Positions 9,536 to 40,566 of a stretch of 64,000 nucleotides of DNA are shown one piece after another. Below the pieces are notes generated by a model. That model worked only from the letters and a program-made list of their open reading frames with translations. It ran no database searches and was not told the origin of the DNA. The position numbers were made by a program, and so were the translations under genes. Origin of the DNA: Klebsiella phage KP13-16; sequence record OP617741.1; one strand, given 5' to 3'. The first letter of the stretch is position 1. The number at the start of each line of letters is the position of its first letter.

Positions 9536-10465
9536 TCACTTCTTATCTCCACTTTTACTTTTCATAATAGAGCTTAAAGATACAAGCGGGGTTTTGGGTA
9601 CAGGTTTCTTTCTAGGGACATAATTTTTGACAAATGGATTAAGATTTTTAGCAATCTCTGGGATGGACATTCCTAAGAGTTTGCTTGCTTCTACCATTTT
9701 TGATCCCACCTCTTTTCCTACAATTACCATGTTATCTTTAGTATAACCTTGGGTTTGGTCTAACAGGATAAAGACTTTTTGAGACAGTTCAATTGTCTCT
9801 CCTGTTAATTTGCACTTAGTTCCTGAAAACTTAGCTTTAAACTCTGCAAAACTAACTGTAAACTCTTTCTTTTCCGCAGAGGCATGTTTAGCCATATCAG
9901 AATAGTAAGAGGCAATGCGTACATCTGGGGCAATCTGTTTATCTGACATCTTCAGGACTCCTTGATCATTACGGGATAGTTCAATTTTTTGTGTTAAGAC
10001 ACCATTCAAGTTATCATAAAAATTTGTATAGTCAATATCTTTAAAATAATTTTTATAAACATTAGATTCAAATTTAATTAAATGGTTGTATTTATAAGAT
10101 AAAAACTTTTTATACCCTGGTGTAACTTTCTCTTGAACCACTCTCAAGATTGCTTCAGATGTTTCATTGATCCTTACTACTTGTACTTCGGTTTTGTCAA
10201 GAGCATAATCTTTTATTCTATTTACTGCTGCTGAAGTTAAACAAACATTCCCTCGTTCATAACCGAGTTTATCATCTAAACGTTCAATGGATATCTTATG
10301 TTTATCCTCATCAAAGGTAACACCAGTATAATCACACTTACCGTCATTCCGTAAGAAAAGTACTTTCATATCTTCAAGGGTTAATTTGAAATCAATACCA
10401 CGCTTCCTGGCATCTTTTTTCTTAGATTCAAAACGTTTTTTGAGTTCTTGTTCGTCTAACTTCAT
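9536..10465 (-). CDS. HNH-endonuclease-like protein with two tandem HNH-type repeats
   Basis: Two copies of C.YTG....S(I/L)(E/D)R(L/I)D...GY...N(V/M) pattern typical of phage HNH nucleases. Confidence 0.5.
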   Translation of the reverse strand: MKLDEQELKKRFESKKKDARKRGIDFKLTLEDMKVLFLRNDGKCDYTGVTFDEDKHKISIERLDDKLGYERGNVCLTSAAVNRIKDYALDKTEVQVVRINETSEAILRVVQEKVTPGYKKFLSYKYNHLIKFESNVYKNYFKDIDYTNFYDNLNGVLTQKIELSRNDQGVLKMSDKQIAPDVRIASYYSDMAKHASAEKKEFTVSFAEFKAKFSGTKCKLTGETIELSQKVFILLDQTQGYTKDNMVIVGKEVGSKMVEASKLLGMSIPEIAKNLNPFVKNYVPRKKPVPKTPLVSLSSIMKSKSGDKK

Positions 10466-15441: not shown

Positions 15442-15573
15442 ACTCCATTAATGAAAAAATCAAACAAAGAATTTGTCCACCAATACAAATAAATCCTGCG
15501 GTAAGGTTATCAAAACCCCAAATGAAAACATTTGCTAAAATCATCAATAAAATATTAAGACCAAACCACATCA
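15442..15573 (-). CDS. small hydrophobic membrane protein (43 aa)
   Basis: Unlisted ORF MMWFGLNILLMILANVF..., strong RBS AGGAGGTGA. Confidence 0.4.
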
Positions 15574-28839: not shown

Positions 28840-29085
28840 ATGCGATTAATTTCCCCATACCCAAGGCCACAAAAGCCAGGTAGAGCCTACTATGAATCTG
28901 TGTATAAAGATTGTGTTATGGTTTATGCAGAAGATTTGGCAATTGGTGATACCCTCCGCTATGGAGGGATTGTTGAAAGTGTAGTCGTTTATAGACAGAC
29001 AGGAAAGGTTCAATTTTCTATAGCAGGAAAATCTAATAATATTGAAATTTCTGTTGGGTCAATGATAAATCTTAAGGTGAATTAA
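28840..29085 (+). CDS. hypothetical protein
   Basis: 81 aa. Confidence 0.45.
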   Translation: MRLISPYPRPQKPGRAYYESVYKDCVMVYAEDLAIGDTLRYGGIVESVVVYRQTGKVQFSIAGKSNNIEISVGSMINLKVN

Positions 29086-29565
29086 ATGAGTAATGAAATA
29101 TTAATTGAAGTGAATAATGAGTTAGTAGCAACTATCGATAAGTGTCGTGAAATTGTCAACTGTCCGAAGGGTATAGATTTGCAGGACCATCTGCGACAGT
29201 TGGCTGCGGAGAATATGGCGCTATCGAAGGATGCTCAGCGTTATCGCTTTATCAGAGAAAGGGACATGTTCGGTTCAGACAATGAATCTGGATTGTTGAG
29301 TTGGGAGGAACTCACCGAGCTTGAGTGCAAAGAATTCGATGATGCACTTGATGCAAGAATTAACCATCCAAATACTGGTTTTATAGAGTTTGACGCCAAG
29401 CTGCAAGCTCGCGAAACCCTCGCCACCGATCGGATCCTAGCCGGGATTAAGGCTGATGGGGTAGAGGAGTTTGCAAAGTACATCTCACTCTATAATAGCG
29501 GTGCTAAACATCATACGATTAATTTTGCAAAACATCTGCGTGAGGGTCTGACAAATGAATTTTAA
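29086..29565 (+). CDS. hypothetical protein (locally GC-rich gene)
   Basis: 159 aa ORF, higher GC than neighbours. Confidence 0.5.
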   Translation: MSNEILIEVNNELVATIDKCREIVNCPKGIDLQDHLRQLAAENMALSKDAQRYRFIRERDMFGSDNESGLLSWEELTELECKEFDDALDARINHPNTGFIEFDAKLQARETLATDRILAGIKADGVEEFAKYISLYNSGAKHHTINFAKHLREGLTNEF

Positions 29566-29902
29566 TTTTAAGTCAGGTACTGGTAAGATTACTATCAATG
29601 GACAGGATTATATTGGTGGTAATATGTATATTAATGGTGATAAAGTTGTGATAGATGGAAAAGTTATCATGGATAGTCTTGTTGGAGACCTAAATATCAC
29701 TATTCATGGAGACGTCGATAAGCTTGAGACGGGTTCAGGAGATGCTACTATTTACGGAAATGTTGAGAGTGCTTCGACCATGAGCGGAGATCTTTTTTGT
29801 GAAACAGTTAAAGGAGATGCAAGCACTATGTCAGGGGATATCAATGCTAAGACAATTCATGGTAAAGCTAAATCAATGTCTGGAGATATTAACTATAAAT
29901 GA
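29555..29902 (+). CDS. repeat protein with reiterated MSGD(I/L) motifs
   Basis: Three TMSGD/SMSGD repeats, Gly/Asp-rich. Confidence 0.45.
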   Translation: MNFNFKSGTGKITINGQDYIGGNMYINGDKVVIDGKVIMDSLVGDLNITIHGDVDKLETGSGDATIYGNVESASTMSGDLFCETVKGDASTMSGDINAKTIHGKAKSMSGDINYK

Positions 29903-30576
29903 ATAAAGTCATCTATTGTATGTATGACGGATCTGGAATAGCAGGATTGCCATGGGCAGAAGCAGGATTTAACGTCTATTGCTTTAATGCCGATGAAGGT
30001 GATCATGGTGAATACTTCATTAAAATGCAACACCCTAATCTTCATTATATTAATATCTGGATTGATAAAGATTTTAGACTAAAAGTAAAAGATATGGGAA
30101 TACCTGATCCTAATTTTATTTTTGCTTTCCCAGACTGTACTAATGTTGCTGTAAGCGGTGCTCAACATGAAAAGACATCTGAACAAAAGAATGATGTAGT
30201 CCGTTCAGCTAAGTATGTAGAGTGGCTAGGTAATTATTATAATTGTCCTTGGATTGTCGAGAATCCTGTTTCTCAATTAGCAACTAAGTGGAGAAAACCA
30301 AATTCATATTTTGACCCGTATGAGTACGGCGGCTATCTCACAGGTGAAGAAGAACAGTTTCATCCAAAAATGCCAAAGTTTGATGCTTATACTAAGAAAA
30401 CATCTCTTTGGTATGGAAATGGCTTTAAAGTTCCACCTAAGAAGCCAGTGCAACACATTGGCTATTGTTGGTCTTGGAGACATCTAGGCGGGAAGGGCAA
30501 GAAAACTAAAATTTTACGTTCTTTAACTCCACGTGGATGGGCGAAGGCTGTTTTTGAAAGTAACTCAGGATTGTGA
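29899..30576 (+). CDS. C5-methyltransferase-fold protein (atypical)
   Basis: Motif I-like YDGSGIAG, motif IV-like FPDCTNVAVSG (PDC not PCQ), motif VI WIVENPV. Confidence 0.35.
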   Translation: MNKVIYCMYDGSGIAGLPWAEAGFNVYCFNADEGDHGEYFIKMQHPNLHYINIWIDKDFRLKVKDMGIPDPNFIFAFPDCTNVAVSGAQHEKTSEQKNDVVRSAKYVEWLGNYYNCPWIVENPVSQLATKWRKPNSYFDPYEYGGYLTGEEEQFHPKMPKFDAYTKKTSLWYGNGFKVPPKKPVQHIGYCWSWRHLGGKGKKTKILRSLTPRGWAKAVFESNSGL

Positions 30577-30736
30577 TATTTTATTGATCAGAGCTTTTAT
30601 ATTTTGACTTAAAAATCTGCACAAGAGAAGGCTTCACCTAAAATCTATGAGAAATTACGGTCTAGCTTTCTTTATATTAGGTGTATATTTAGTTTAAATA
30701 AAGTTTCATGTTAAAAGCATGTTCGATCTAGCATTT

Positions 30737-30765
30737 TTGACATTTCGGATTTTAAAATCCATAAT
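30737..30765 (+). promoter_or_regulatory. strong sigma70-type promoter P1 (TTGACA-17-CATAAT)
   Basis: Seen directly. Confidence 0.5.
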
Positions 30766-30922
30766 TTTTTAGTGAAAAGTCAATTCCATGTTTTTAAAAG
30801 TGACATTTACAATGCAATGCAGTATAGCAAATACAGATTTTTATTCAAAATGTTTAATATTCAAACCGTTTTAAATTTTATGAAAATTTTTTGTGGCAAA
30901 TCGGGAAAAATTTGTAGCATTT

Positions 30923-30951
30923 TGGACATCCCTATTTTCAAAATCCATAAT
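30923..30951 (+). promoter_or_regulatory. strong sigma70-type promoter P2 (TGGACA-17-CATAAT), shares 15-bp AAAATCCATAATTTT with P1
   Basis: Seen directly. Confidence 0.45.
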
Positions 30952-31035
30952 TTTCTGGTTCACATCATACCCATGTTTTTATCCAGGCAGTTTCTTGGGA
31001 ATATCTCTAAGTGAGAATGGTTCTCATTTGAGAAG

Positions 31036-31057
31036 TTGAATGATAATCATTCTCATT
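31036..31057. promoter_or_regulatory. Fur-box-like operator TTGAATGATAATCATTCTCATT
   Basis: Contains AATGATAATCATT, the central 13-mer of the Fur consensus GATAATGATAATCATTATC; 17-mer identical to 38855-38871. Confidence 0.45.
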
Positions 31058-31080
31058 TATAAAACGAAATAAGACTCATT

Positions 31081-31343
31081 CGCATTTGCGGAATGACGGG
31101 CAGGTTCGGTGTTTGTCTCGCGATTCCCGTTACCCCTCGCCATGTAGAAATAATAACATAACCAACACTAGGATCAAGCGTCTTTACATTTCTTTACAAA
31201 ACTATTCAAGGCGAGCTACCGGCGATTCACCTTCCGACCTGGCCCCCGCGCCTGGTACGTTAGCCCCGCCTTTTCGCCGTGGGGTGGCGTGTCCTCTTCT
31301 TTATGGATACATTATGCCCCATTCCCTGGGGCGTGTCAACACA
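31081..31343 (+). ncRNA. candidate structured non-coding RNA (GC-rich, no credible ORF)
   Basis: About 60 percent GC segment downstream of two tandem promoters; only a compositionally implausible ORF. Confidence 0.25.
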
Positions 31344-31553
31344 TTAAACACCATATTTGATAAAATCCCTGGCGGCTTGTGTAGGCTGATATTCTACGCC
31401 GTAAGCGTCATCCACCTGCACAAGAAAACCTTTCTTAATCAAGCCCGTTATTGCCCGGCGAGCTGCTGTATAACTGGTGAAATGTGAATCATTGCTAAAA
31501 GTGAAACCGTGTTTAATAGCTATTTCAAGAGTGAGTTTTTCTGTTTTGGTCAT
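31344..31553 (-). CDS. small putative winged-helix DNA-binding protein
   Basis: 69 aa, RBS GAGGA; flanked by 11-bp direct repeats TGGCGGCTTGT. Confidence 0.45.
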   Translation of the reverse strand: MTKTEKLTLEIAIKHGFTFSNDSHFTSYTAARRAITGLIKKGFLVQVDDAYGVEYQPTQAARDFIKYGV

Positions 31554-31655
31554 TGTCCGATCCTCGTTATGCCTCCACCGTGGCGGCTTGTTAATTACTA
31601 TATACTAATGAAGGGAAAACGCAAGCGAAAAATTTAGAAAAATATTTGCATCCAA

Positions 31656-31685
31656 GTATTGACGGGAAGATCAAGAGGGACTATT
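31656..31685 (+). promoter_or_regulatory. sigma70 promoter TTGACG-17-TATTAT
   Basis: Seen directly, upstream of 31751 ORF. Confidence 0.45.
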
Positions 31686-31750
31686 ATTCACTACACAAGG
31701 CGAGGCGATAGGCGCACCGTGAGAGCAACGATAACCAGGAAGAAAAGAAA

Positions 31751-31972
31751 ATGGCAACATTACACGTAGTAGTTTATAAGCACGCGGTAACGGGCGATGA
31801 TATGATCCAGGTGCTTGTTAATGGCTTTTGTGAAATGGAACGAGAAGGCGATTTCAACGGTTATTGCATTGTGTGTGCTTTCCTTGATTCCCTGGTTGAA
31901 ATGTGTGTTATCACTCATGAGCAGCGCGAAGCGAAGATCAACCGCCTGAAAAAACTTTTAGATATCGAATAA
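31751..31972 (+). CDS. hypothetical protein
   Basis: 73 aa, E. coli-like codon usage. Confidence 0.5.
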   Translation: MATLHVVVYKHAVTGDDMIQVLVNGFCEMEREGDFNGYCIVCAFLDSLVEMCVITHEQREAKINRLKKLLDIE

Positions 31973-31979
31973 AAACCGC

Positions 31980-32038
31980 TTGACAGATTCGCACAGTAAC
32001 GTATAATTCACTTCATAGGCAGCGGGAATGGTTCCCGC
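31980..32038 (+). promoter_or_regulatory. promoter TTGACA-16-TATAAT followed by 5' UTR hairpin GCGGGAATGGTTCCCGC
   Basis: Seen directly. Confidence 0.55.
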
Positions 32039-32061
32039 GCCGATATAAAGAGATTTGAAAA

Positions 32062-32352
32062 ATGAAAATTTCAGAGAACAAAGATTTAATTTTCACCGTT
32101 AAAAATTATATCCGCCACCCGTATGAATTTGGCGGATATCCGAAAATTTTAATTATGCGTGATGGTAGTTGCCTTTGTTCAAAGTGTACGCATGAAAATT
32201 TTCCCCGCCTATTGGAAGAATTAAGAGATGAGAGTGATCTAGCATGGATGCCCGCGGACGTGGATGTTTTCTGGGAAGGTGCGGATTTCCCGTGTGGTAA
32301 TTGCCAGACTCCGATCCATAGTGCATATGGAGATCCCGAAGAAGAAGAATAA
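32062..32352 (+). CDS. hypothetical Zn-ribbon protein
   Basis: CLCSKC ... CGNC. Confidence 0.55.
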   Translation: MKISENKDLIFTVKNYIRHPYEFGGYPKILIMRDGSCLCSKCTHENFPRLLEELRDESDLAWMPADVDVFWEGADFPCGNCQTPIHSAYGDPEEEE

Positions 32353-32354
32353 AT

Positions 32355-32411
32355 ATTGACAAGCATCTAAAAGATAGTAAACTGTTAATCAAAGGGCGGG
32401 AATGGTTCCCG
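32355..32411 (+). promoter_or_regulatory. promoter TTGACA-16-TAAACT followed by identical hairpin GCGGGAATGGTTCCCGC
   Basis: Seen directly. Confidence 0.5.
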
Positions 32412-32431
32412 CCAAAACAAAGAGAGAAAAT

Positions 32432-32593
32432 TATGATTGCTATGAATACCCGCGAAGCCGCTCGCAACGTAGCCCGTAAAGTTAATGCCGTTGCACCTGC
32501 TAAATTGAAAGCACCAGTGAAAGGCGAAAACGGCTGGATCTTCCCTGGCTTGTCTCATGCCGACAACAAAGGCACTTTGAGCCTGAAAAAATA
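32432..32593 (+). CDS. small hypothetical protein (53 aa)
   Basis: Unlisted ORF MIAMNTREAARNV... Confidence 0.4.
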
Positions 32594-32595
32594 AG

Positions 32596-32633
32596 TTGAC
32601 TTTTCGTTATAGCGCCTTATAATGGGCGCTATA
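32596..32633 (+). promoter_or_regulatory. promoter TTGACT-16-TATAAT with -10 embedded in perfect 9-bp inverted repeat TATAGCGCC/GGCGCTATA
   Basis: Seen directly. Confidence 0.55.
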
Positions 32634-32658
32634 GAGAAGAGAAACCAGGAGTAGAAAA

Positions 32659-32802
32659 ATGAAAATGTATAACGTGGTAGTAGTGAACAATAAAACAGGC
32701 GTCAAAGTGATCATGAATGCTTCACCGTTAACCCATTTAGAAGGTTGCACTATGTTAGCTAAACTAACCAAATACACCTGGCGAACAGAAAAATTAGAAG
32801 AA
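32659..32802 (+). CDS. small hypothetical protein (47 aa)
   Basis: RBS AGGAG. Confidence 0.4.
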
Positions 32803-32807
32803 ATTTG

Positions 32808-32846
32808 TTGACTTTCTGTGATGCCTCTTTATAATAAGGGGCATTG
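32808..32846 (+). promoter_or_regulatory. promoter TTGACT-17-TATAAT with -10 inside inverted repeat GATGCCTCTT/AAGGGGCATT
   Basis: Seen directly. Confidence 0.5.
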
Positions 32847-32880
32847 AAGAGAGAAGCCAAACAATCTAACGAGGTGTAAA

Positions 32881-33102
32881 ATGGTTACATTCGCAATTAT
32901 TTCTCTGGTAGCTGGTAACGTGTTTATTAATGACACTTTCCCGGCGGATGATAGCAAACCTGGCGAGATCAGCACAGTTTATGCAGATTGTAAAGCCGCC
33001 GAACGTATGTTATCACCTTGCTTGCTGATGAGTGAACGCGACGACGGGAAGATCGTATTCACGAACGTGGAAACATGGTATCAATTGGTAGTAGAAAAAT
33101 GA
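32881..33102 (+). CDS. hypothetical protein
   Basis: RBS GAGGTG. Confidence 0.5.
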   Translation: MVTFAIISLVAGNVFINDTFPADDSKPGEISTVYADCKAAERMLSPCLLMSERDDGKIVFTNVETWYQLVVEK

Positions 33103-33248
33103 ATCCTAAGCATAAAATGATGATGGAAGCAAGCCGTTTCATCAATAAAACAGAAAAAAGAAAATGTTTTGTTTTATGTCTTACAACGCTTGCAATTGGT
33201 TTAGTGTGTGTTATTATTACTTACACGAACATTGAAGCAGGAAATTAA
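33099..33248 (+). CDS. small membrane protein (49 aa)
   Basis: ATGA-coupled, hydrophobic core. Confidence 0.4.
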   Translation: MNPKHKMMMEASRFINKTEKRKCFVLCLTTLAIGLVCVIITYTNIEAGN

Positions 33249-33250
33249 AA

Positions 33251-33595
33251 ATGGCTAAAAATATTAATAAAGCAGAAAAAAGTTTTGTTAAATTGTCGGA
33301 TGTTGAATGCGTACATATTAATGCACGCCGATGGTTTCAACGTTCATATGGTAATACATACTTTTCTTTAAAAGTAGACGTAGAAGTTAACGGACAGATT
33401 ATTAATATTGTTAATGTGCCTTTTGAGTATGGTTATGGGGATCATTATGATTCTGTAGCTTTAAAAGAATTTAAAGAAGCTGTTATATTAGATGAAAAAT
33501 TGGAGGACTACTGCTATTTATCACGTGCCCTTAAAGAATCTGGTATTTTAGTTTATAATCATTGCTCTGATGTAGACCGTAAAAAAGATTTATAA
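33251..33595 (+). CDS. hypothetical protein
   Basis: 114 aa. Confidence 0.5.
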   Translation: MAKNINKAEKSFVKLSDVECVHINARRWFQRSYGNTYFSLKVDVEVNGQIINIVNVPFEYGYGDHYDSVALKEFKEAVILDEKLEDYCYLSRALKESGILVYNHCSDVDRKKDL

Positions 33596-33600
33596 TTTAT

Positions 33601-33640
33601 TTGACTTTTCGTTATGCCCTGTTAGAATATAGGGCATAGA
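33601..33640 (+). promoter_or_regulatory. promoter TTGACT-16-TAGAAT with -10 inside inverted repeat TTATGCCCTGT/ATAGGGCATAG
   Basis: Seen directly. Confidence 0.5.
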
Positions 33641-33673
33641 GAAAAGAAATAACACTAACCAGGAATATCTAAA

Positions 33674-33874
33674 ATGACTAAATCTACTTTTGACTTTTCA
33701 AAAATGGTTGTTGAATCTACCGAATCCTTGAAAGGATTCAGAAAAGAAAGCGGCTATTATAAATCATTGTCACTTGTTGGTTTACATGATAATCAAATTA
33801 AATCATTTGCCGAGATCCGCCATTATGCAACAAAAGCAACTACGTTTGTTTTTGGATTCATTCCCCTATCTTAG
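33674..33874 (+). CDS. hypothetical protein; downstream -1 frame stays open to 34073 (possible frameshift extension)
   Basis: Frame -1 has no start codon yet is open from 33802 to 34073. Confidence 0.4.
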   Translation: MTKSTFDFSKMVVESTESLKGFRKESGYYKSLSLVGLHDNQIKSFAEIRHYATKATTFVFGFIPLS

Positions 33875-34079
33875 GTTTATATGGTCAAGTAGGCGCAAAG
33901 GCTGGCGGTTATGGTTATAATAGATCTGAAGCAGCTATTTCTCAGGCAGCAAGAAAATTTAATATTGATGTCCCTAGCTGGTGCGATCAGCAAACATTAT
34001 TAGAAGAACTTGCAAAATATTTAGGTTTAGAGGTATATTCTGTAATTGAAACAAATGCTTAAAACTTAAAGGTAGCATT

Positions 34080-34370
34080 ATGTTAAAACAGGCGAAAACT
34101 TATGTATTGAGTAAGTTTATTAAACGGGTATTAAATGACCCAGTTTATAAAACTTACTACTGTTACAAAATACTTGATAACAAAGGTGATTATTTAATTT
34201 CTTCTGTGATGTGCCATGAGCAAGCGATGATCTTTGAAATAGGTTTAAGACAAAAGAAAGTTTTAAACGAAATAATTTCATTTGAAATTATTGCTCAAGG
34301 CGGCGAAGATGAAGTAACAGAAGAAAAATATCATGAAGAAAATTATATTAAACAAACATTGGAAGATTAA
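34080..34370 (+). CDS. hypothetical protein
   Basis: 96 aa. Confidence 0.5.
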   Translation: MLKQAKTYVLSKFIKRVLNDPVYKTYYCYKILDNKGDYLISSVMCHEQAMIFEIGLRQKKVLNEIISFEIIAQGGEDEVTEEKYHEENYIKQTLED

Positions 34371-34372
34371 AG

Positions 34373-34504
34373 ATGCAAAGCAAAAATTTTGAAAAGATTA
34401 AGAGCAGTAAGCAACGTTTAGAATGTAATGAGACAGATGAACGCCGGGAGCGTAGTAATAAACGCAATAAGCCGCAGCGTAAGCGTTTTAATTGGGAAGA
34501 ATAG
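34373..34504 (+). CDS. small basic protein (43 aa)
   Basis: Unlisted ORF. Confidence 0.3.
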   Translation: MQSKNFEKIKSSKQRLECNETDERRERSNKRNKPQRKRFNWEE

Positions 34505-34637
34505 GGAAACCTATTAATAAAGATTAAAGCCTCTTAGAATGGATTTTAGGGGCTTTAAATTTGATTTAAATTTTTCTTGCTTTTTCCATTTTGTTGATCT
34601 ATTCTCTTAATCAGGCAAACAAAGAGAGATTTACAAA

Positions 34638-34898
34638 ATGGAAACATTAAACATTTTAAATGATAGATTCTGTTTTGATTTAATAGGTCTGTTAATTATT
34701 TCACCTGTAACTATTATTTACGCTATCCTAACTTTTAAAGGTCTAACTATGAAACAAAATGTAATGAAGATCCACACTAACACCGGATCTACAATTGTTA
34801 CCCCGTTTCATTTTGCAATGAAAAGCCGTTGCAAACGTCTTAAAAGTGAGTTAAAATCTAACACAAATACAGGTTTTAAACGTTGGGGTAAAATCTAA
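34638..34898 (+). CDS. hypothetical membrane protein
   Basis: RBS AGAGAG. Confidence 0.45.
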   Translation: METLNILNDRFCFDLIGLLIISPVTIIYAILTFKGLTMKQNVMKIHTNTGSTIVTPFHFAMKSRCKRLKSELKSNTNTGFKRWGKI

Positions 34899-35200
34899 TG
34901 AAAGCGAATGATTCTTTTTTCTTCTCAGAATGTAAAGATCATGTTTTAGTTGACATTCAGTCATTTTCTAATACTATGAATTTTAGATTCACTAGTGAAA
35001 GAATAGTTGACAAAGGTCTATTGTTGACTATTACAACAAAGAAAGAAAAAGGTTGTTTTGAATTAAATTATAAGCTTTCACAAGACAATCAATTATTAGC
35101 CCAGGATGGCGGGAAAAATATTCCACCGAAAGATCTATTCTATGTCATTAGTGACATTGTTAATGATGCTTTTTCTTGCGAGATAAGATTAACAGCTTAA
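34898..35200 (+). CDS. hypothetical protein
   Basis: ATGA-coupled. Confidence 0.5.
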   Translation: MKANDSFFFSECKDHVLVDIQSFSNTMNFRFTSERIVDKGLLLTITTKKEKGCFELNYKLSQDNQLLAQDGGKNIPPKDLFYVISDIVNDAFSCEIRLTA

Positions 35201-35555
35201 AAAGAAAGTCAATAGCTTTTCCAATTATTTTTCATTTTTGCGTTATGCAAAAAAGTGAATTTAAAGACTTCTCACACAAGATGATTAAGGGTATGGCAAA
35301 CGGCTAGAACCTCTTAGAATGCGTTTTAGAGCGTTTTACGGGGTATTGACTTTTACCGAAAGGCTCAAAACGTCATATAGTTAGTTTCATCGTGCGATTG
35401 TTGCGGTACGAAATTACATGGCGACCGCTACAAATGGGACAATGCTGGATTAAAATAATGTGCATTATTTACGCCCTGGGGCTTGATCTCCCTGGGGCGT
35501 TTTGCTATCCTTATTTTGTGGCGGCAATGATGCCAACCACTAACGAGGATTTAAC

Positions 35556-35855
35556 ATGGAACCTTTACAACTTCTTTCCACTTTACGCGCTATTGCCAAC
35601 AACACTTTGATCGCTTGCCAGCGCCAGGAGTTTAAACCGGAATTCATCTATAAGAATCATAACCAGCAGTTAGCCACCATTGAACAGGCGATCAGCGGTT
35701 ACAATATGGGGGCAAAGGTTAACGCGAAATATAAAGCGGAGATCAAGAAAATAATGCTTGCACCAATGAAAGATAAGAATTATTATCTTATCTCAGAACA
35801 AGTAAAGCAAGGCGTAAATAAATTATCAAGCGCTATTGACTTTATGAAACGATAA
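35556..35855 (+). CDS. hypothetical protein
   Basis: RBS GAGGA. Confidence 0.5.
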   Translation: MEPLQLLSTLRAIANNTLIACQRQEFKPEFIYKNHNQQLATIEQAISGYNMGAKVNAKYKAEIKKIMLAPMKDKNYYLISEQVKQGVNKLSSAIDFMKR

Positions 35856-35900
35856 ACTACAAAGGCGGCAGCAATGCCACCAATGTTAGACAGGTGAAAA

Positions 35901-36194
35901 ATGTTACAATCTAACAAAAATTTAAAATTACGTCAATCCCTCGTAAACATGGCGATCAATGTCGAGCCGTACAAACGAAAGGAACCTAAGCAAGATATGC
36001 GAGGGAGAAAAATCACTTGGACAGATCAACAGGTATTAGAGATCCGCGCCCTACATAAATTTACAGCAATGAAACCAGCGGAGATCGCAGAAAAATATAA
36101 TACAACAAAAGGCGCGATCACCTATTTACTAACATATAATACTCGTGTACTCTTAGAGCCAGAAAGAAAACATTTACCAATTGAGGCGAAATAA
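35901..36194 (+). CDS. putative HTH DNA-binding protein
   Basis: MKPAEIAEKYNTTKGAITYLL helix-turn-helix-like. Confidence 0.45.
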   Translation: MLQSNKNLKLRQSLVNMAINVEPYKRKEPKQDMRGRKITWTDQQVLEIRALHKFTAMKPAEIAEKYNTTKGAITYLLTYNTRVLLEPERKHLPIEAK

Positions 36195-36195
36195 A

Positions 36196-36501
36196 ATGGC
36201 TAAAGTATTGAATAGTAAACAATTGTCTGATACAATCTCAATTACTGAATGCACAGATGGATTCTGGCTATATGACGAAACGCGCGGGATGAATCTGTCA
36301 ATGCGGGCAAAGAGCAGCGAGGCGGCATTATTTGAGGCGCTGGAATATTACCAGGAGCGTTTCCAGGAAGTGCAAAACAATTACAACAGCCTTAAAGCGA
36401 AAGTAGATCATTTTGTCGGGCAGGTGGTAGATCATGATTGCGGTGATTATTATTGCAATCGTTGCGGATCATCCAGTGAGATAGAATATCACGGCAATTA
36501 A
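36196..36501 (+). CDS. hypothetical protein with C-terminal Cys cluster
   Basis: Start MAKVLNSK after GAGG. Confidence 0.5.
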   Translation: MAKVLNSKQLSDTISITECTDGFWLYDETRGMNLSMRAKSSEAALFEALEYYQERFQEVQNNYNSLKAKVDHFVGQVVDHDCGDYYCNRCGSSSEIEYHGN

Positions 36502-36577
36502 CAGCACTTTTTGCTAAAACAGAATATCTCTTTGTGTTATTATCTTTATAGAAAGAAAATTAACCGGAGAGAAGAAA

Positions 36578-36715
36578 ATGGGACTTGTAACAGCTTTTAT
36601 TATCTTTGTTGTTTTAAGCGCTGTATTTGGTGGCGGAAAAGGCAAGAAAGGCAAACGTAAGAGCCGCGCTGGATCTGGTCAGAATGGCTATGTTTACTCT
36701 CATAAAAATCATTAA
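36578..36715 (+). CDS. small membrane protein (45 aa)
   Basis: RBS GGAGAG. Confidence 0.4.
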   Translation: MGLVTAFIIFVVLSAVFGGGKGKKGKRKSRAGSGQNGYVYSHKNH

Positions 36716-36729
36716 TAGGAATAATTATC

Positions 36730-36972
36730 ATGAATGCTGTAGATATCTTTTTAGCGGCTTATGTTAAAGCAATGTTGTGGAGTAGTAGCGGCACAGACCA
36801 GGACGGCGAAGATCTGGAAAGTCTGGAAGGGTTCGAACTTTCCACCGAATCGCTGAAAAAAGCTAAAGAAGATTGCGAATCATTCTTATTTGCATCAAAA
36901 GCGCTTTTCGCTGATTTGCCTACCTGGTACGGGAAAGGCGACGGCGGGATCTATGCTTATCTCAGAGCATGA
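36730..36972 (+). CDS. hypothetical protein
   Basis: 80 aa. Confidence 0.5.
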   Translation: MNAVDIFLAAYVKAMLWSSSGTDQDGEDLESLEGFELSTESLKKAKEDCESFLFASKALFADLPTWYGKGDGGIYAYLRA

Positions 36973-37139
36973 TTAATGAGATTGATTCTCGTTATTCAAT
37001 GGCGCTTGAATATCAAGCACAAGCACAATACTTACAGCTTGATATTGAAGAGCAACAAGATCAAGACGCTTTTTGGGAACACCAGGACGCTCAAGCGGAT
37101 TTTGATGCAAAACTCAATATGTATTATAACGAATATTAA
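36969..37139 (+). CDS. small acidic protein (56 aa)
   Basis: ATGA-coupled; preferred over listed 36976-37242 frame. Confidence 0.4.
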   Translation: MINEIDSRYSMALEYQAQAQYLQLDIEEQQDQDAFWEHQDAQADFDAKLNMYYNEY

Positions 37140-37146
37140 TACAACA

Positions 37147-37215
37147 GGGGGCCGCTATGGTTCCCCGCTTTTTATCCAAATAAAAACCATTTCAAATAGG
37201 GCGCACAAAGCGCCC
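37147..37215 (+). terminator. tandem rho-independent terminators ending the GC-rich island operon (GGGCGC acaaa GCGCCC + T-run)
   Basis: Stem-loops followed by T tracts. Confidence 0.6.
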
Positions 37216-37687
37216 TTTCTTTTTGCCTGTTATTCTCAATAACCCTTAATAGCGTGAATCATAGATTCTGCCTATTGAAATCATTCACAGCAAAAAAGTG
37301 AATAAATCGCGTTATAAGGTTTTCTAAGCTAGATTGACTAACTACCAGGGGTAAGCGGTAAACCTCTTAGGATGGCTTACAGGAGCTTTAAGGGCCATAT
37401 GACTATACAAAACAGAGCTTATTTTACAATTTTTGATTGAAATTAATTAAATAATAACTATTATCATCTAAGTATGTATAATTATTCACTTTATTGCATA
37501 AGTAAGATCAATTCTCATTAACTCTAACCTTCCTAACCTTATTCAATTCTATGTAATAAACTTTATATTAATTAGAAAACTAATCATTTATTATTTATAA
37601 ATTGCGAAGCAATAAATAACGGTTCCCGATTGCAACATTTATTTAAATTATGTTATTATAAACAATTAAAACTAATAGGAAGTATTT

Positions 37688-38170
37688 ATGGCACTATTGA
37701 AAACAGATCACATTATTAAAACTTTTGAGAATTGGTATATTTGCAAATGTGAACTTTGTAATGATTTATTTGCTATAACTATTGATGGAAGAAGAAAAAG
37801 TTATTGCTCTTGTAGTCTAAGTATAAGTAAGTTAAATAATAAACAAAATATTGTTTATATATTAGAAAACGGACAATCTTTTTATAAAATAGGCTTATCC
37901 TCTAAATCAAGTTTAGATTATAGAATAAAGGTTATAAACGAGGGATTTATTAAGTTAAATTTAAAACCATTTTATTGTATTAAAACCTTAAATATTAAAT
38001 CAAGATCTATTGCATATTCTATAGAGAGAATGCTTTTATATTCATTTAAAGATTTAAAAGCCTTTCCTATTAAACCTTATATTTTTGAAGGTCAAAGAGA
38101 AATAATTAAAGATTTAAATATATTTGCTTTAAATAATAGAATAAAAACTTTAATTTCTCTTTTCAAATAA
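37688..38170 (+). CDS. GIY-YIG-like / T5orf172-family putative nuclease (extremely AT-rich)
   Basis: NIVYILENGQSFYKIGLSS resembles GIY..YIG core; about 25 percent GC. Confidence 0.45.
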   Translation: MALLKTDHIIKTFENWYICKCELCNDLFAITIDGRRKSYCSCSLSISKLNNKQNIVYILENGQSFYKIGLSSKSSLDYRIKVINEGFIKLNLKPFYCIKTLNIKSRSIAYSIERMLLYSFKDLKAFPIKPYIFEGQREIIKDLNIFALNNRIKTLISLFK

Positions 38171-38180
38171 AAATGTTCGC

Positions 38181-38410
38181 GACGAAGTTTTAACGAGGAG
38201 CGAACATATATAGAGTAAAGTAACACCCTCCCTTTGGTCGTGAGTTCCTCTCTATATTGTTCGCTTGAGAACATTATGAGAGAATATCTCACCTTATAAA
38301 TTATCGAACAATATAGAGAGTGATCCTAAAAGCTTTCAGTTGAAAGCTTTAAGTCTCCCTTTACTCTATATATGTTCGTTTTCTGAATGATTGCAAGTGC
38401 AATCAATTGC
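38181..38410. repeat. nested imperfect palindrome with TGTTCG motif in both orientations
   Basis: CGAACATATATAGAGTAAAG (38201-38220) pairs with 38359-38378; CTCTATATTGTTCG (38250-38263) pairs with 38305-38318; local hairpins AAAGCTTTCA/TGAAAGCTTT and GATTGCA/TGCAATC. Confidence 0.6.
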
Positions 38411-38854
38411 TACGCAATCAAATATGTTCGATAATGCTTTGTCAAGAATATAATGGATAATGTTATAAATAAATATCTTTACTTTTAATAAAATTTGCCT
38501 GTTTACAGGTGGGCATAGCCCATCCCGGAAGGGACAAAATTTATGTGTGCAAATCCATTAAAATACTAAACAAGATTTTGATTGACTTTGTCAATTTGAT
38601 GCGGGCATCAACTTAGCGAATAGCTAAGCATTGTTTTCTCTTTTCACTTGACAAGGCACCTTTTCAAAAATTTTTTCTTATGCGTAAACGCAAATGAGAT
38701 TTATTCTCACTTGACCATGAATGAGAATTATTCTAAATCTGATAATAATTCGTATTTGTTATTGATTGCGCGATGTCGCAGAGCCGACAGAAAGCGCGAG
38801 GATCCTACGTGTAACAGTTATCAAACAGGCGGTTGACCTGTTATAAAGCTTGAT

Positions 38855-38871
38855 TGATAATCATTCTCATT
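38855..38871. promoter_or_regulatory. Fur-box-like 17-mer TGATAATCATTCTCATT (identical to 31041-31057)
   Basis: 13/14 match to TGATAATCATTATC half of Fur consensus. Confidence 0.45.
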
Positions 38872-38913
38872 CAAGATTTGTTTTAGAGCAGAACTTGCAG
38901 AAAATGTCAAGAA

Positions 38914-39204
38914 TCTGGGAGGAAATATATTTTTTATTTTGCTTGATATTTTAAAATTATCAGGGTTCAAAATCTGGCACAACTTCGGCTATTAAGCACT
39001 GAGGACATAGAGCTTGAGCACTGTGGATGTAAATCCTAGAAGTAGATATATTCTGGGAGGGTTATGCCTTTTGTTAATTGAATCAATACTTTATAGATAT
39101 TAAGGTTGCGTAAAGCAACTCAGACGTGAACGTCCATTATATTTTCTGGGAGGATATTTTAAAGATGGTGCCCCTGTTTTTAATTCTGAAATTTGGGGGA
39201 GGGG
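38914..39204. repeat. four direct repeats of (T)TCTGGGAGG / TTGGGGGAGGGG
   Basis: Copies at 38914, 39052, 39145, 39195. Confidence 0.5.
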
Positions 39205-39233
39205 TGTAAAATTGAGTGGAAAACAGAGGTTAG

Positions 39234-39273
39234 TCAAATTGACTATTAATTAGTGGTTAAATTGACTATTAAT
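39234..39273. repeat. tandem direct repeat AAATTGACTATTAAT x2
   Basis: Seen directly. Confidence 0.5.
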
Positions 39274-39394
39274 GAATAATTATTCAGGGGTGTTTGATGG
39301 TAAGCAGGTTAGATGTTTATGCTATCGACACATTAGAGGAATATGTTTAAGAAATGTCATTTTATCGACATATTGATGAGAATAGTAACTAATC

Positions 39395-39775
39395 TTATTT
39401 GGTATATGACGGGCAGATCTGGTGGTTGTTTCGTGTAGCATCAGCAACATATAAAATCTCATTAAAAGATGAGAAGATGTTTTCATCTCGGAATGTAAAA
39501 TCTACACCTTTATACGTGGTATCTAAGGGATAGAATTTATGATGTGATACACCCTCAGAATAATGGATTATATCACCTTTAATAAGATAAGGTTGCAAGC
39601 GCTCTAAGAATTCTTCATGAAATTCTTCACTAAGATTGGTAACATAGGTATTGGGCAAAGGTAACTTTTTAATAACCATTGGCCTAGATACCTTCTCAAA
39701 TGGGATCGTGTACCAATTACGCTCGCCATTACGTTGACGTGGTTCTACTGCAAAAATTTTAAAATCAGACATTTT
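39395..39775 (-). CDS. hypothetical protein
   Basis: Start MSDFKIF after AGGAGAACAAA. Confidence 0.5.
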   Translation of the reverse strand, partial: KMSDFKIFAVEPRQRNGERNWYTIPFEKVSRPMVIKKLPLPNTYVTNLSEEFHEEFLERLQPYLIKGDIIHYSEGVSHHKFYPLDTTYKGVDFTFRDENIFSSFNEILYVADATRNNHQICPSYTK

Positions 39776-39995
39776 GTTCTCCTGTTTTATTTTCAAGGTA
39801 AGCATCAATCACTCCGTACACACTAGAGTAATCCATGTCAGGGTACACATTTAAAATATTGTTGTAACAGTCTGAGGTTGTTTTATTTTTAGACTTTTTA
39901 GTCCCAAAAACAGTAAAATAGCTCTTACATGTCATTCGTGCTTGTTTAACCTGTTTACGATCCCCGGTATCTTCAAAATTTAATTCTTTAATCAT
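39765..39995 (-). CDS. hypothetical protein
   Basis: 76 aa. Confidence 0.4.
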   Translation of the reverse strand: MIKELNFEDTGDRKQVKQARMTCKSYFTVFGTKKSKNKTTSDCYNNILNVYPDMDYSSVYGVIDAYLENKTGEQNV

Positions 39996-40000
39996 GGTTG

Positions 40001-40342
40001 TCATCTCCACTTTCTCATGGATTGCATACTGTTTTCCATCTCATCAATAAGAGTCTGTTCGTCAGGTGCAATACAATCCCAGATTGGTTGAAGCATTTCA
40101 AACCAACTGTCGATAGAGGTGTTTACCACAACAATTACATAGTTACCTTTAGGATCAACATAGTGAACCAATCCAGTTGTACCATGACAATACTTACCAT
40201 GATCATTTTTGCAATATGCAATCACTTTCCCTTGTTGAGCAAAAGACAGGACATCTTTCCAACCAGGATGCTGAAGACAAAGTGGTGAATAGTTTGGCAC
40301 CTTAAAACAACTCTTATCTTTTGTATGATATTCTAATTTCAT
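40001..40342 (-). CDS. hypothetical protein
   Basis: 113 aa. Confidence 0.5.
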   Translation of the reverse strand: MKLEYHTKDKSCFKVPNYSPLCLQHPGWKDVLSFAQQGKVIAYCKNDHGKYCHGTTGLVHYVDPKGNYVIVVVNTSIDSWFEMLQPIWDCIAPDEQTLIDEMENSMQSMRKWR

Positions 40343-40566
40343 TCTTTATCCTTATACCAAACAAGAACTACAAAAGGAACCCAAGAACTAGCCCAACCCA
40401 TAATTGCAGCTAATACCAGTGCAGCAGACCAATTCCATACCAGATCAAATCCCAGAATGTATTTAAGTCCAAGATAAGTCACTCCCCAAGAGATAAATGA
40501 GGAAACCATCATCAAAATTAGACTATTAATAGCAAAAACAACACCTTTCATCTTATAACTCCTCAT
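40339..40566 (-). CDS. small two-TM membrane protein
   Basis: Hydrophobic segments. Confidence 0.5.
   Translation of the reverse strand: MRSYKMKGVVFAINSLILMMVSSFISWGVTYLGLKYILGFDLVWNWSAALVLAAIMGWASSWVPFVVLVWYKDKE

Follow-up and report, generated by a model that had tools for sequence, protein, structure and literature searches.

Fur-type palindrome arrays bordering an early-gene block of Klebsiella phage KP13-16 and their counterpart in the T5 injection-stop region

The repeated 17-mer and its family of boxes

A 17-mer, TGATAATCATTCTCATT, occurs in two exact copies (31041-31057 and 38855-38871) on either side of a block of small genes in a 64,000-nucleotide stretch of Klebsiella phage KP13-16 (OP617741.1), hereafter called the window. 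The locus raises the question of what these words are: operators for the host iron regulator Fur, junctions of an inserted module, or sites of another kind. An earlier reading made from the letters alone (hereafter, the sequence-only reading) had offered the first two answers, in the form of a Fur-regulated moron island of higher GC content or of direct repeats left by modular recombination. In the answer put forward here, to which sequence comparison lends an even chance of being correct, the two 17-mers would be the two best of approximately ten conserved operator sites of host-Fur type, set in arrays that border an early-gene block. The analysis showed that these sites are conserved, phased at 29 bp, confined in their strong form to 7.9 kb and, judging by BLAST matches, homologous to an array in phage T5.

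The nearest relatives of the window were Stephanstirmvirinae and Vequintavirinae myoviruses, which we take to be virulent; the phage itself is a virulent enterobacterial myovirus of Stephanstirmvirinae type. Between approximately 17.5 kb and 40 kb its genes lay on the plus strand, and to either side of this stretch on the minus strand; the boxes are located in the final quarter of the plus-strand stretch. For positions 30500-39500 the closest relative was the Stephanstirmvirinae myovirus Klebsiella phage vB_KpM_FBKp34 (FBKp34; 92.7% identity over 73% of the query, in 14 pieces), while other myoviruses of Klebsiella, Escherichia, Salmonella, Cronobacter and Pectobacterium had 19-37% of the region in common.

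Both copies of the 17-mer were confirmed as exact. Three exact 17-mer repeats were present in the window, one of them plainly fortuitous, and at least one such repeat appeared in 33% of Markov-1 simulations, so that the exact repeat alone is not significant. When up to three mismatches were allowed, the 17-mer had 11 matches in the window versus 0.9 expected, and the signal is thus a family of boxes rather than the identity of two words. In FBKp34 the words at the two corresponding places differed from each other (TGATAATTATTCTCATC and TGAGAAGCATTATCATT), which makes the exact identity peculiar to the window genome; the latter word was close to the reverse complement of the second site of the window, within an otherwise almost identical 200 bp.

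The match of both places to the Fur consensus GATAATGATAATCATTATC, at 15 of 19 positions (31036-31054) and 14 of 19 (38850-38868) in the best registers, was borne out, and related palindromes were confirmed nearby, at 31010-31028, 31068-31086, 38693-38711, 38720-38738 and 38738-38756. The repeat unit was a 19-bp inverted repeat of 9-1-9 form, AATGAnAATnATTnTCATT, which across copies and relatives takes the form AATGAGAATnATTCTCATT. Its best members formed two clusters, one with boxes starting at 31010, 31039 and 31068, exactly 29 bp apart (cluster A, boxes A1 to A3), and the other with boxes starting at 38693, 38720, 38738 and 38853 (cluster B); box orientation was not the same in both.

A symmetrised Fur matrix was built from the eight best sites of seven Fur-regulated intergenic regions of E. 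coli K-12. The boxes extracted there from ryhB (AATAATAATCATTCTCATT), gpmA (AATGATAATAATTCTCATT) and fhuA (TATAATAATCATTCTCGTT) are made of the same 19-bp 9-1-9 repeat as the phage sites, and those of gpmA and ryhB were placed just as far from the gene starts as the sites reported and confirmed by gel shift by Chen et al. (2007; PMC2189734), whose information-theory model describes a 9-1-9 site with conserved bases out to ±8 and ±9. Box A2 was the same as the gpmA box at 18 of 18 non-central positions, only the central base differing, and departed from the ryhB box at one non-central position; relative to AATGATAATnATTATCATT, the two 17-mer sites matched at 17/18 and 16/18 non-central positions. 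Their scores (23.9 and 22.0 bits) equalled or exceeded those of the E. coli sites with the same matrix (training sites 15.6-23.1 bits, leave-one-out 11.4-21.8 bits). In the 64 kb, 10 sites reached 14.7 bits or more, all of them within 31010-38871, and hits of at least 10 bits numbered 23 in the window versus 4.75 in shuffles. A matrix made from phage sites chosen by position, not by score, correlated with the E. coli matrix at r = 0.93, and the variation among phage copies fell at positions where Fur sites vary. At lax thresholds, the sole relevant Rfam match was to that end of the PrrF model which holds a promoter with a Fur box (E = 4.8). At the level of sequence the Fur-box reading is therefore strongly supported (full 9-1-9 sites, top scores, conserved positions), while the island framing given to it by the sequence-only reading did not hold, as detailed below.

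The arrays in related phages and in T5

Conservation was followed in 17 loci oriented on an invariant 29-mer, drawn from FBKp34, tuntematon, a Mydovirus, a PVP-SE1-like phage and IMG/VR contigs (CR3-like, phiTE-like and KNP2-like); a short-pattern scan of IMG/VR gave mostly chance hits and three new true loci. Each locus held one to four boxes at offsets of -188, -217, -246 and -283 from a conserved GC-rich non-coding element next to the array (Table 1), in 29-bp phasing, and the phasing of A1-A2-A3 itself was also present in the FBKp34, tuntematon, CR3-like and phiTE-like loci. The FBKp34 record carries a predicted promoter annotated over the box equivalent to A2. The boxes in the first part of cluster B were kept in FBKp34 as well, at positions 15500 and 15527 of its extracted locus (L001). 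In the FBKp34 and Mydovirus loci, strong distal boxes were found 7-12 kb downstream, in the non-coding far end of the small open reading frame (ORF) block, one of which (AATAATAATGATTCTCATT, 21.2 bits) was the ryhB box except for its centre. The proposal that the 17-mers bound the block was thus upheld insofar as strong boxes at both block ends recur in FBKp34 and in Mydovirus genomes, and the flanking arrangement looks real; the sites are not the ends of a mobile island.

BLAST also matched the window array to T5-like Demerecviridae. Klebsiella phage Sealy carried three boxes at 35-bp spacing, between GTCGGATTTGCACAT repeats and DnaA boxes, and had the spacer TTTGAGAAGTTGAATG in common with the window. 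In T5, four sites of 17-24 bits and two half-sites were found in 9552-9716, the best of them, AATGAGAATCATTATCATT at 9656, scoring 24.0 bits. The T5 array lies in non-coding DNA 3' of the annotated terminator of a pre-early operon, inside the annotated injection stop signal (iss) and near both the estimated end of first-step transfer and the major nick at 9748. It had 634 matching records and gave reciprocal BLAST matches to phi92, phAPEC8, tuntematon and KP2025. On the basis of these alignments, spacer TTTGAGAAGTTGAATG included, the window array is judged homologous to the T5-like array. The settings differ, since the T5-like array lies in the terminal repeat by DnaA boxes and DRD repeats, whereas that of the window stands by a conserved promoter element which T5 lacks; no DRD-type repeats were seen near the window array. 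Palindromes and repeats of the T5 iss have been named palE-palJ and DRC by Davison (bioRxiv 10.1101/866236), who considered their function impossible to guess and suggested cleavage sites for protein A1; Fur is never mentioned in that preprint. The T5 proteins A1 and A2 and their neighbours had no match in the window or related loci, homologues of A2 were found in T5-like genomes only, and tblastx comparison of the flanks of T5-like arrays with the window phage gave no similarity.

In the record of a Mydovirus locus, Klebsiella phage vB_Kpn_K45PH128C2 (OY978796; L003 1508-1661), annotations of tRNA-Met and tRNA-Ile coincide exactly with the palindromes and with the beginning of the conserved element. 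ARAGORN found no tRNA in the window or in five loci, and the annotation is probably a pipeline artefact.

Table 1. Positions of the Fur-type boxes and of neighbouring features in the window.
Feature	Position	Strand	Details
Fur-type box A1, AGTGAGAATGGTTCTCATT	31010-31028		17.6 bits; offset -247 from conserved element, as in relatives
Fur-type box A2, AATGATAATCATTCTCATT	31039-31057		23.9 bits, top score of the window; holds the first 17-mer
Fur-type box A3, degenerate, AATAAGACTCATTCGCATT	31068-31086		16.3 bits; 29 bp from A2
Two Fur-type sites in coding sequence	36872-36890, 36975-36993		16.8 and 18.8 bits; near block end, before tandem terminators
Fur-type site AATAATAACTATTATCATC	37450-37468		15.3 bits; AT-rich non-coding DNA; FBKp34 equivalent at L001 14689
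Boxes of cluster B, first part	38693-38711, 38720-38738, 38738-38756		15.2, 14.8 and 12.1 bits
Fur-type box ATTGATAATCATTCTCATT	38853-38871		22.0 bits; holds the second 17-mer
Predicted promoter TTGACC-17-GATAAT	38833-38861	+	10/12 matches; box 38853-38871 overlaps -10 and start
68-bp repeat, two copies	30729-30796, 30915-30981	+	Predicted rightward promoters TTGACA-17-CATAAT and TGGACA-17-CATAAT
Conserved GC-rich non-coding element	31087-31310	-	Matched by 279 phage records; 88% identity to PVP-SE1 over this stretch
Hairpins A, B and C	31289-31275, 31270-31221, 31143-31093	-	Inside conserved element
Predicted promoter P2, TTGATC-16-TATTAT	31150-31177	-	Leftward; within conserved element
Predicted promoter P1, TTGACA-17-CATAAT	31311-31339	-	11/12 matches; leftward into conserved element
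Early-gene block	31659-37139	+	18 small ORFs, 43-114 amino acids (aa); several sigma-70 promoters with stem-loops
Two intrinsic terminators in tandem	37147-37165, 37198-37216	+	End the plus-strand block

Possible roles of the arrays and competing explanations

If host Fur is the partner of these sites, its Fe2+-loaded dimers would sit on the arrays of phage DNA as it enters and replicates, and bound Fur would repress or block transcription over the borders of the early-gene block. Such interference would act at three points: the rightward promoter at 38833-38861, where Fur would cover the -10 and the start; a weak rightward promoter at 31036-31063 (TTGAAT-16-TATAAA), in whose spacer box A2 sits; and, meeting within cluster A, the leftward P2 transcript and the rightward transcripts from promoters at 30.7-30.95 kb. 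The latter promoters belong to the two copies of a 68-bp repeat in a 430-bp non-coding stretch 5' of the array and are aimed at it, so that the array lies between converging promoters, covering approximately +52 to +128 of the rightward transcript and +57 to +133 of that from P2. When iron is scarce, Fur would leave and the border transcripts would read through; titration of Fur by the many genome copies could be a by-product or an alternative purpose. No Fur homologue was found in the window with an E. coli Fur sequence as the query.

Several observations weigh against Fur as the partner. The matrix is small (eight sites) and leans to the consensus, its sites having been picked by best consensus match. 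Its sole difference from the phage matrix was at ±4, where phage sites have G (70%) and E. coli sites T (60%), the phage consensus favoring GAGAAT and that of E. coli GATAAT. The 29-bp and 35-bp spacings are unlike the 3- or 6-bp offsets of overlapping Fur sites (PMC2189734). Occlusion of a promoter was clear for 38853-38871, loose for 31039-31057 and not seen for the other eight sites, most boxes having no overlap with a convincing -35/-10 pair; moreover, FBKp34 keeps the former box (20.0 bits) as the near-reverse-complement TGAGAAGCATTATCA, which weakens the -10 of the 38.8-kb promoter. The spacers between boxes were partly conserved between the T5-like phages and those studied here, so that some of the conservation comes from a common ancestor or from a cassette passed on horizontally. 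Finally, a Vibrio T5-like phage with A1 and A2 had no such array in the 20 kb examined, even though Vibrio Fur recognises the same box. The same absence led us to reject the idea that the array is central to two-step injection by the A1/A2 system.

Some of these points would be expected if the palindromes bound another protein, phage-encoded or another enterobacterial host factor, and merely resembled Fur boxes, an explanation that we consider unlikely. The G at ±4 in place of the T usual in E. coli Fur sites, the regular period of 29 or 35 bp with partly conserved spacers, as in iterons or dedicated operators, and the Vibrio phage without an array all agree with a dedicated binder. Such a binder does not account so readily for an identity with a validated Fur box that spans the full 19 bp, nor for phage copies that vary where Fur sites do, and no shared candidate emerged from the 69-aa and 97-aa ORFs, protein A2 and tblastx, in a search that covered 44% of one genome. 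The 69-aa ORF, on the minus strand beside the array, was absent from FBKp34 and had no Pfam or PHROG family, and the 97-aa ORF, weakly similar to MarR (helix-turn-helix-like), was present in only six records; both were rejected as binders.

Fur might also bind the arrays without regulating the phage. Hundreds of replicating genomes with 7-10 strong sites each would soak up Fur as a decoy and thereby switch on the iron-starvation regulon of the host, as multicopy Fur boxes derepress Fur-controlled genes in the Fur titration assay (PMC2189734). The many strong sites off promoters and the location of the arrays in non-coding DNA, in T5 within the terminal repeat and hence in two copies per genome, are in line with this idea. 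A decoy, however, needs neither a fixed 29-bp phasing, nor a fixed distance to a promoter element, nor a siting on both borders of the early-gene block, and we regard it as decidedly improbable.

It is still less probable, in our view, that the palindromes act as RNA hairpins of the leftward P2 transcript, serving as terminators, processing sites or stabilisers. P1 and P2, the conserved leftward promoters, do stand upstream of them, a TTT follows each palindrome in plus-strand orientation, and one depositor's pipeline called them tRNAs. Nevertheless, the stems consist largely of A and U around a single central base, and no GC-rich stem followed by a U-run was detected. Boxes A1, A2 and 38853 each contain a mismatched pair, so that sequence and not pairing is conserved; the arms of the best sites are not fully complementary (GATAAT versus GAGAAT), as would be expected of a protein-binding site more than of an RNA hairpin. 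Box orientation, in addition, differs by cluster, ARAGORN found no tRNA, and Rfam gave no family at gathering thresholds for either the boxes or the conserved element.

The 17-mers are hardly to be seen as direct repeats marking where a 7.8-kb module was inserted or shuffled, as the sequence-only reading had also suggested, for although the block is highly mosaic (FBKp34 covering 73% of 30500-39500 in 14 pieces, other phages 19-37%), homology with FBKp34 ran unbroken through both clusters and broke at internal promoter cassettes, the FBKp34 words were non-identical, no overall GC shift was present, and an exact 17-mer repeat arises by chance in a third of sequences of such composition; as far as alignment with the available relatives goes, this reading is refuted.

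Host-Fur-type operators, to return to the reading preferred here, are otherwise textbook elements, and conserved arrays of near-perfect Fur boxes in non-coding regulatory DNA of virulent phages have apparently not been reported before. The phage sites differ from E. coli Fur boxes in forming arrays with a 29-bp period, mostly off -35/-10 pairs and not beside iron genes, in a virulent phage. The Shiga toxin 1 promoter of lambdoid prophages is a phage-borne element regulated by iron and Fur; it consists of a single operator serving a toxin gene in a temperate phage, a true moron, whereas the window holds arrays in border non-coding DNA of a virulent phage, with no cargo identified. In the literature searched, no paper linked T5 or these myoviruses to Fur.

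The main interest lies in the presence of the same arrays in the unexplained injection-stop region of T5, and in an idea that simple experiments could test. If Fur binds, lytic therapy phages of Klebsiella, E. coli and Salmonella would read the iron status of their host, which differs sharply between broth and infected tissue; the T5 injection-stop region, an old open problem, would become accessible to a cheap and concrete experiment; and the arrays, together with the adjacent conserved promoter element, would be a case of phages that have built global regulators of the host into the control of their early development. Should Fur not bind, a widely conserved family of operators is left all the same. 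As a long shot, the Fur-box arrays could be a horizontally exchanged cis-module common to unrelated virulent lineages (T5-like siphoviruses and phi92/rV5-like myoviruses), marking the border of the first-expressed, and in T5 first-entering, DNA; Fur would then be a physical barrier to RNA polymerase or to DNA entry and the host factor of the T5 injection stop, tying early development to the iron state.

The early-gene block and its surroundings

The expectation of tiny genes between the 17-mers was confirmed, with 19 ORFs of 43-160 aa found there; none had a Pfam family, and only a few were present in PHROGs, with function unknown. Other attributes of the supposed island fared less well. The GC content of 31011-38875 was 0.360 versus 0.355 and 0.354 on the two sides, hence not that of a higher-GC island, and was patchy within the region (0.427, 0.31, 0.406 and 0.288 in successive segments), the first high-GC patch being in part a non-coding element with a GC content of 0.53. 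Nor was codon usage E. coli-like: the mean GC content at third codon positions was 0.33 in the ORFs of the block versus 0.27 elsewhere in the window, and that of E. coli is far higher than 0.33. Consensus promoters had been expected for each gene, and strong ones were present for approximately six or seven of the 19 ORFs (10-12 of 12 matches to sigma-70, nearly all in 31.6-33.7 kb) but not for the rest. The tandem terminators said to end the block exist, yet they are located 1.6 kb before the second 17-mer, from which they are separated by one more ORF and approximately 1.2 kb of non-coding DNA. The Fur-type sites found in coding sequence lay within ORFs 36730-36972 and 36969-37139.

When 29000-40500 was compared by BLAST with the FBKp34 locus, homology was unbroken over cluster A (30487-31304) and cluster B (38106-39273), and breakpoints fell inside the block, at 31304/31561, 32055/32356, 32647/32797, 36118/36430 and 36732/37174. 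These breakpoints corresponded to intergenic promoter/stem-loop cassettes. An island present or absent with junctions at the 17-mers was consequently not observed in this comparison, in which homology was continuous, breaks internal and repeats non-identical. With a virulent myovirus, an ordinary mosaic early-gene region and no overall compositional shift, the moron island was abandoned as well; no autonomous cargo gene was identified among the ORFs of the block, which are unannotated small genes of early type.

Consensus sigma-70 promoters whose -10 lies within or immediately before a stem-loop were located at 31980-32045, 32356-32415, 32596-32640, 32808-32850 and 33601-33645, an example being TTGACT..TATAGCGCC-TTATAAT-GGGCGCTATA. 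Another 17-mer, GCGGGAATGGTTCCCGC, occurred within these cassettes at 32022 and again at 32396. Promoter/stem-loop (PeSL) cassettes reportedly mediate modular shuffling in T4-type phages, as Arbiol and colleagues are said to have described in 2010. The block promoters with stem-loops (at 32596, 32808, 33601, 31980 and 32356) resemble that system in coinciding with mosaic breakpoints relative to FBKp34; the likeness is one of description, concerns another phage lineage, and is limited to promoters inside the block, not extending to the Fur-type boxes.

The region 31009-31320, which includes cluster A and the conserved element, matched 279 phage records and was nearly always unannotated in them. 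A minus-strand sigma-70 promoter equivalent to P1, with an AT-rich tract preceding it and a spacer that is GC-rich and variable, was found in 17 of 17 loci, and the position of P2 was occupied in relatives by TTGCAA-17-TATATT. Local hairpins followed each leftward promoter, and the few compensatory changes and G-U pairs fitted the minus strand only. In hairpin B one pair alternated between G-C and A-U (8 versus 6 sequences), while hairpin C had outer stems ATGGCG/CGTCAT, ATGGCG/CGCTAT or ATAGCGGG/CCCGCTAT and inner stems TCG/CGA, GCG/CGC or CCGG/CCGG. The element as one large structured RNA was rejected, since its fold was no better than those of shuffles (z = +0.47), and RNAalifold found only 20 pairs, one of them compensated; its structure is that of local hairpins, and no more is claimed. 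A host origin was likewise discarded, with no match in E. coli genomes. The element may encode an undescribed phage small RNA or serve as a docking region for host regulators. Directly upstream of the -35 of P2, GTAAAGAAATGTAAA (31183-31197, minus strand) is an exact match to GTAAA-N5-GTAAA, the CpxR consensus, kept in 13 of 14 aligned relatives; one such match per 64 kb arose in 30% of shuffles, and the match may be incidental, since the whole element is conserved, so that it is given as a lead only. FBKp34 carries a second, inverted partial copy of the conserved element with two further boxes (L001 13240-13380).

Some individual genes of the block merit mention. At 33674-34063, comparison with FBKp34 gene 057 revealed a 4-bp deletion (TAAT, at approximately 33841), through which a 130-aa ORF is broken into a 66-aa ORF and a shifted remainder; this is a frameshifted gene or a sequencing error. 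The 96-aa ORF at 32062-32352, with two Cys pairs, matched PHROG 18452 'DNA ligase' (E = 4e-46), a label also used in several relatives; for so tiny a protein with no Pfam ligase domain, the name looks like a propagated misannotation. Beyond the terminators, in the region 37688-38390, a very AT-rich ORF (GC content 0.215, 160 aa) had a weak match to the T5orf172 domain (E = 0.011, under the Pfam cut-off). Nested perfect inverted repeats were present 3' of it (38201-38220/38359-38378 and 38248-38263/38305-38320; fold of -74 kcal/mol, z = -9.6), and its middle (37726-37977) had no counterpart in FBKp34; this region may be a mobile or homing-type insertion. Past cluster B, the convergent intergenic region 38914-39278 contained three copies of (ATAT)TCTGGGAGG, at 38914, 39046 and 39139, as well as a 23-bp tandem repeat (GTYAAATTGACTATTAAT..) at 39233-39278; these are without exception kept in FBKp34 and may be phage-specific promoter or terminator signals.

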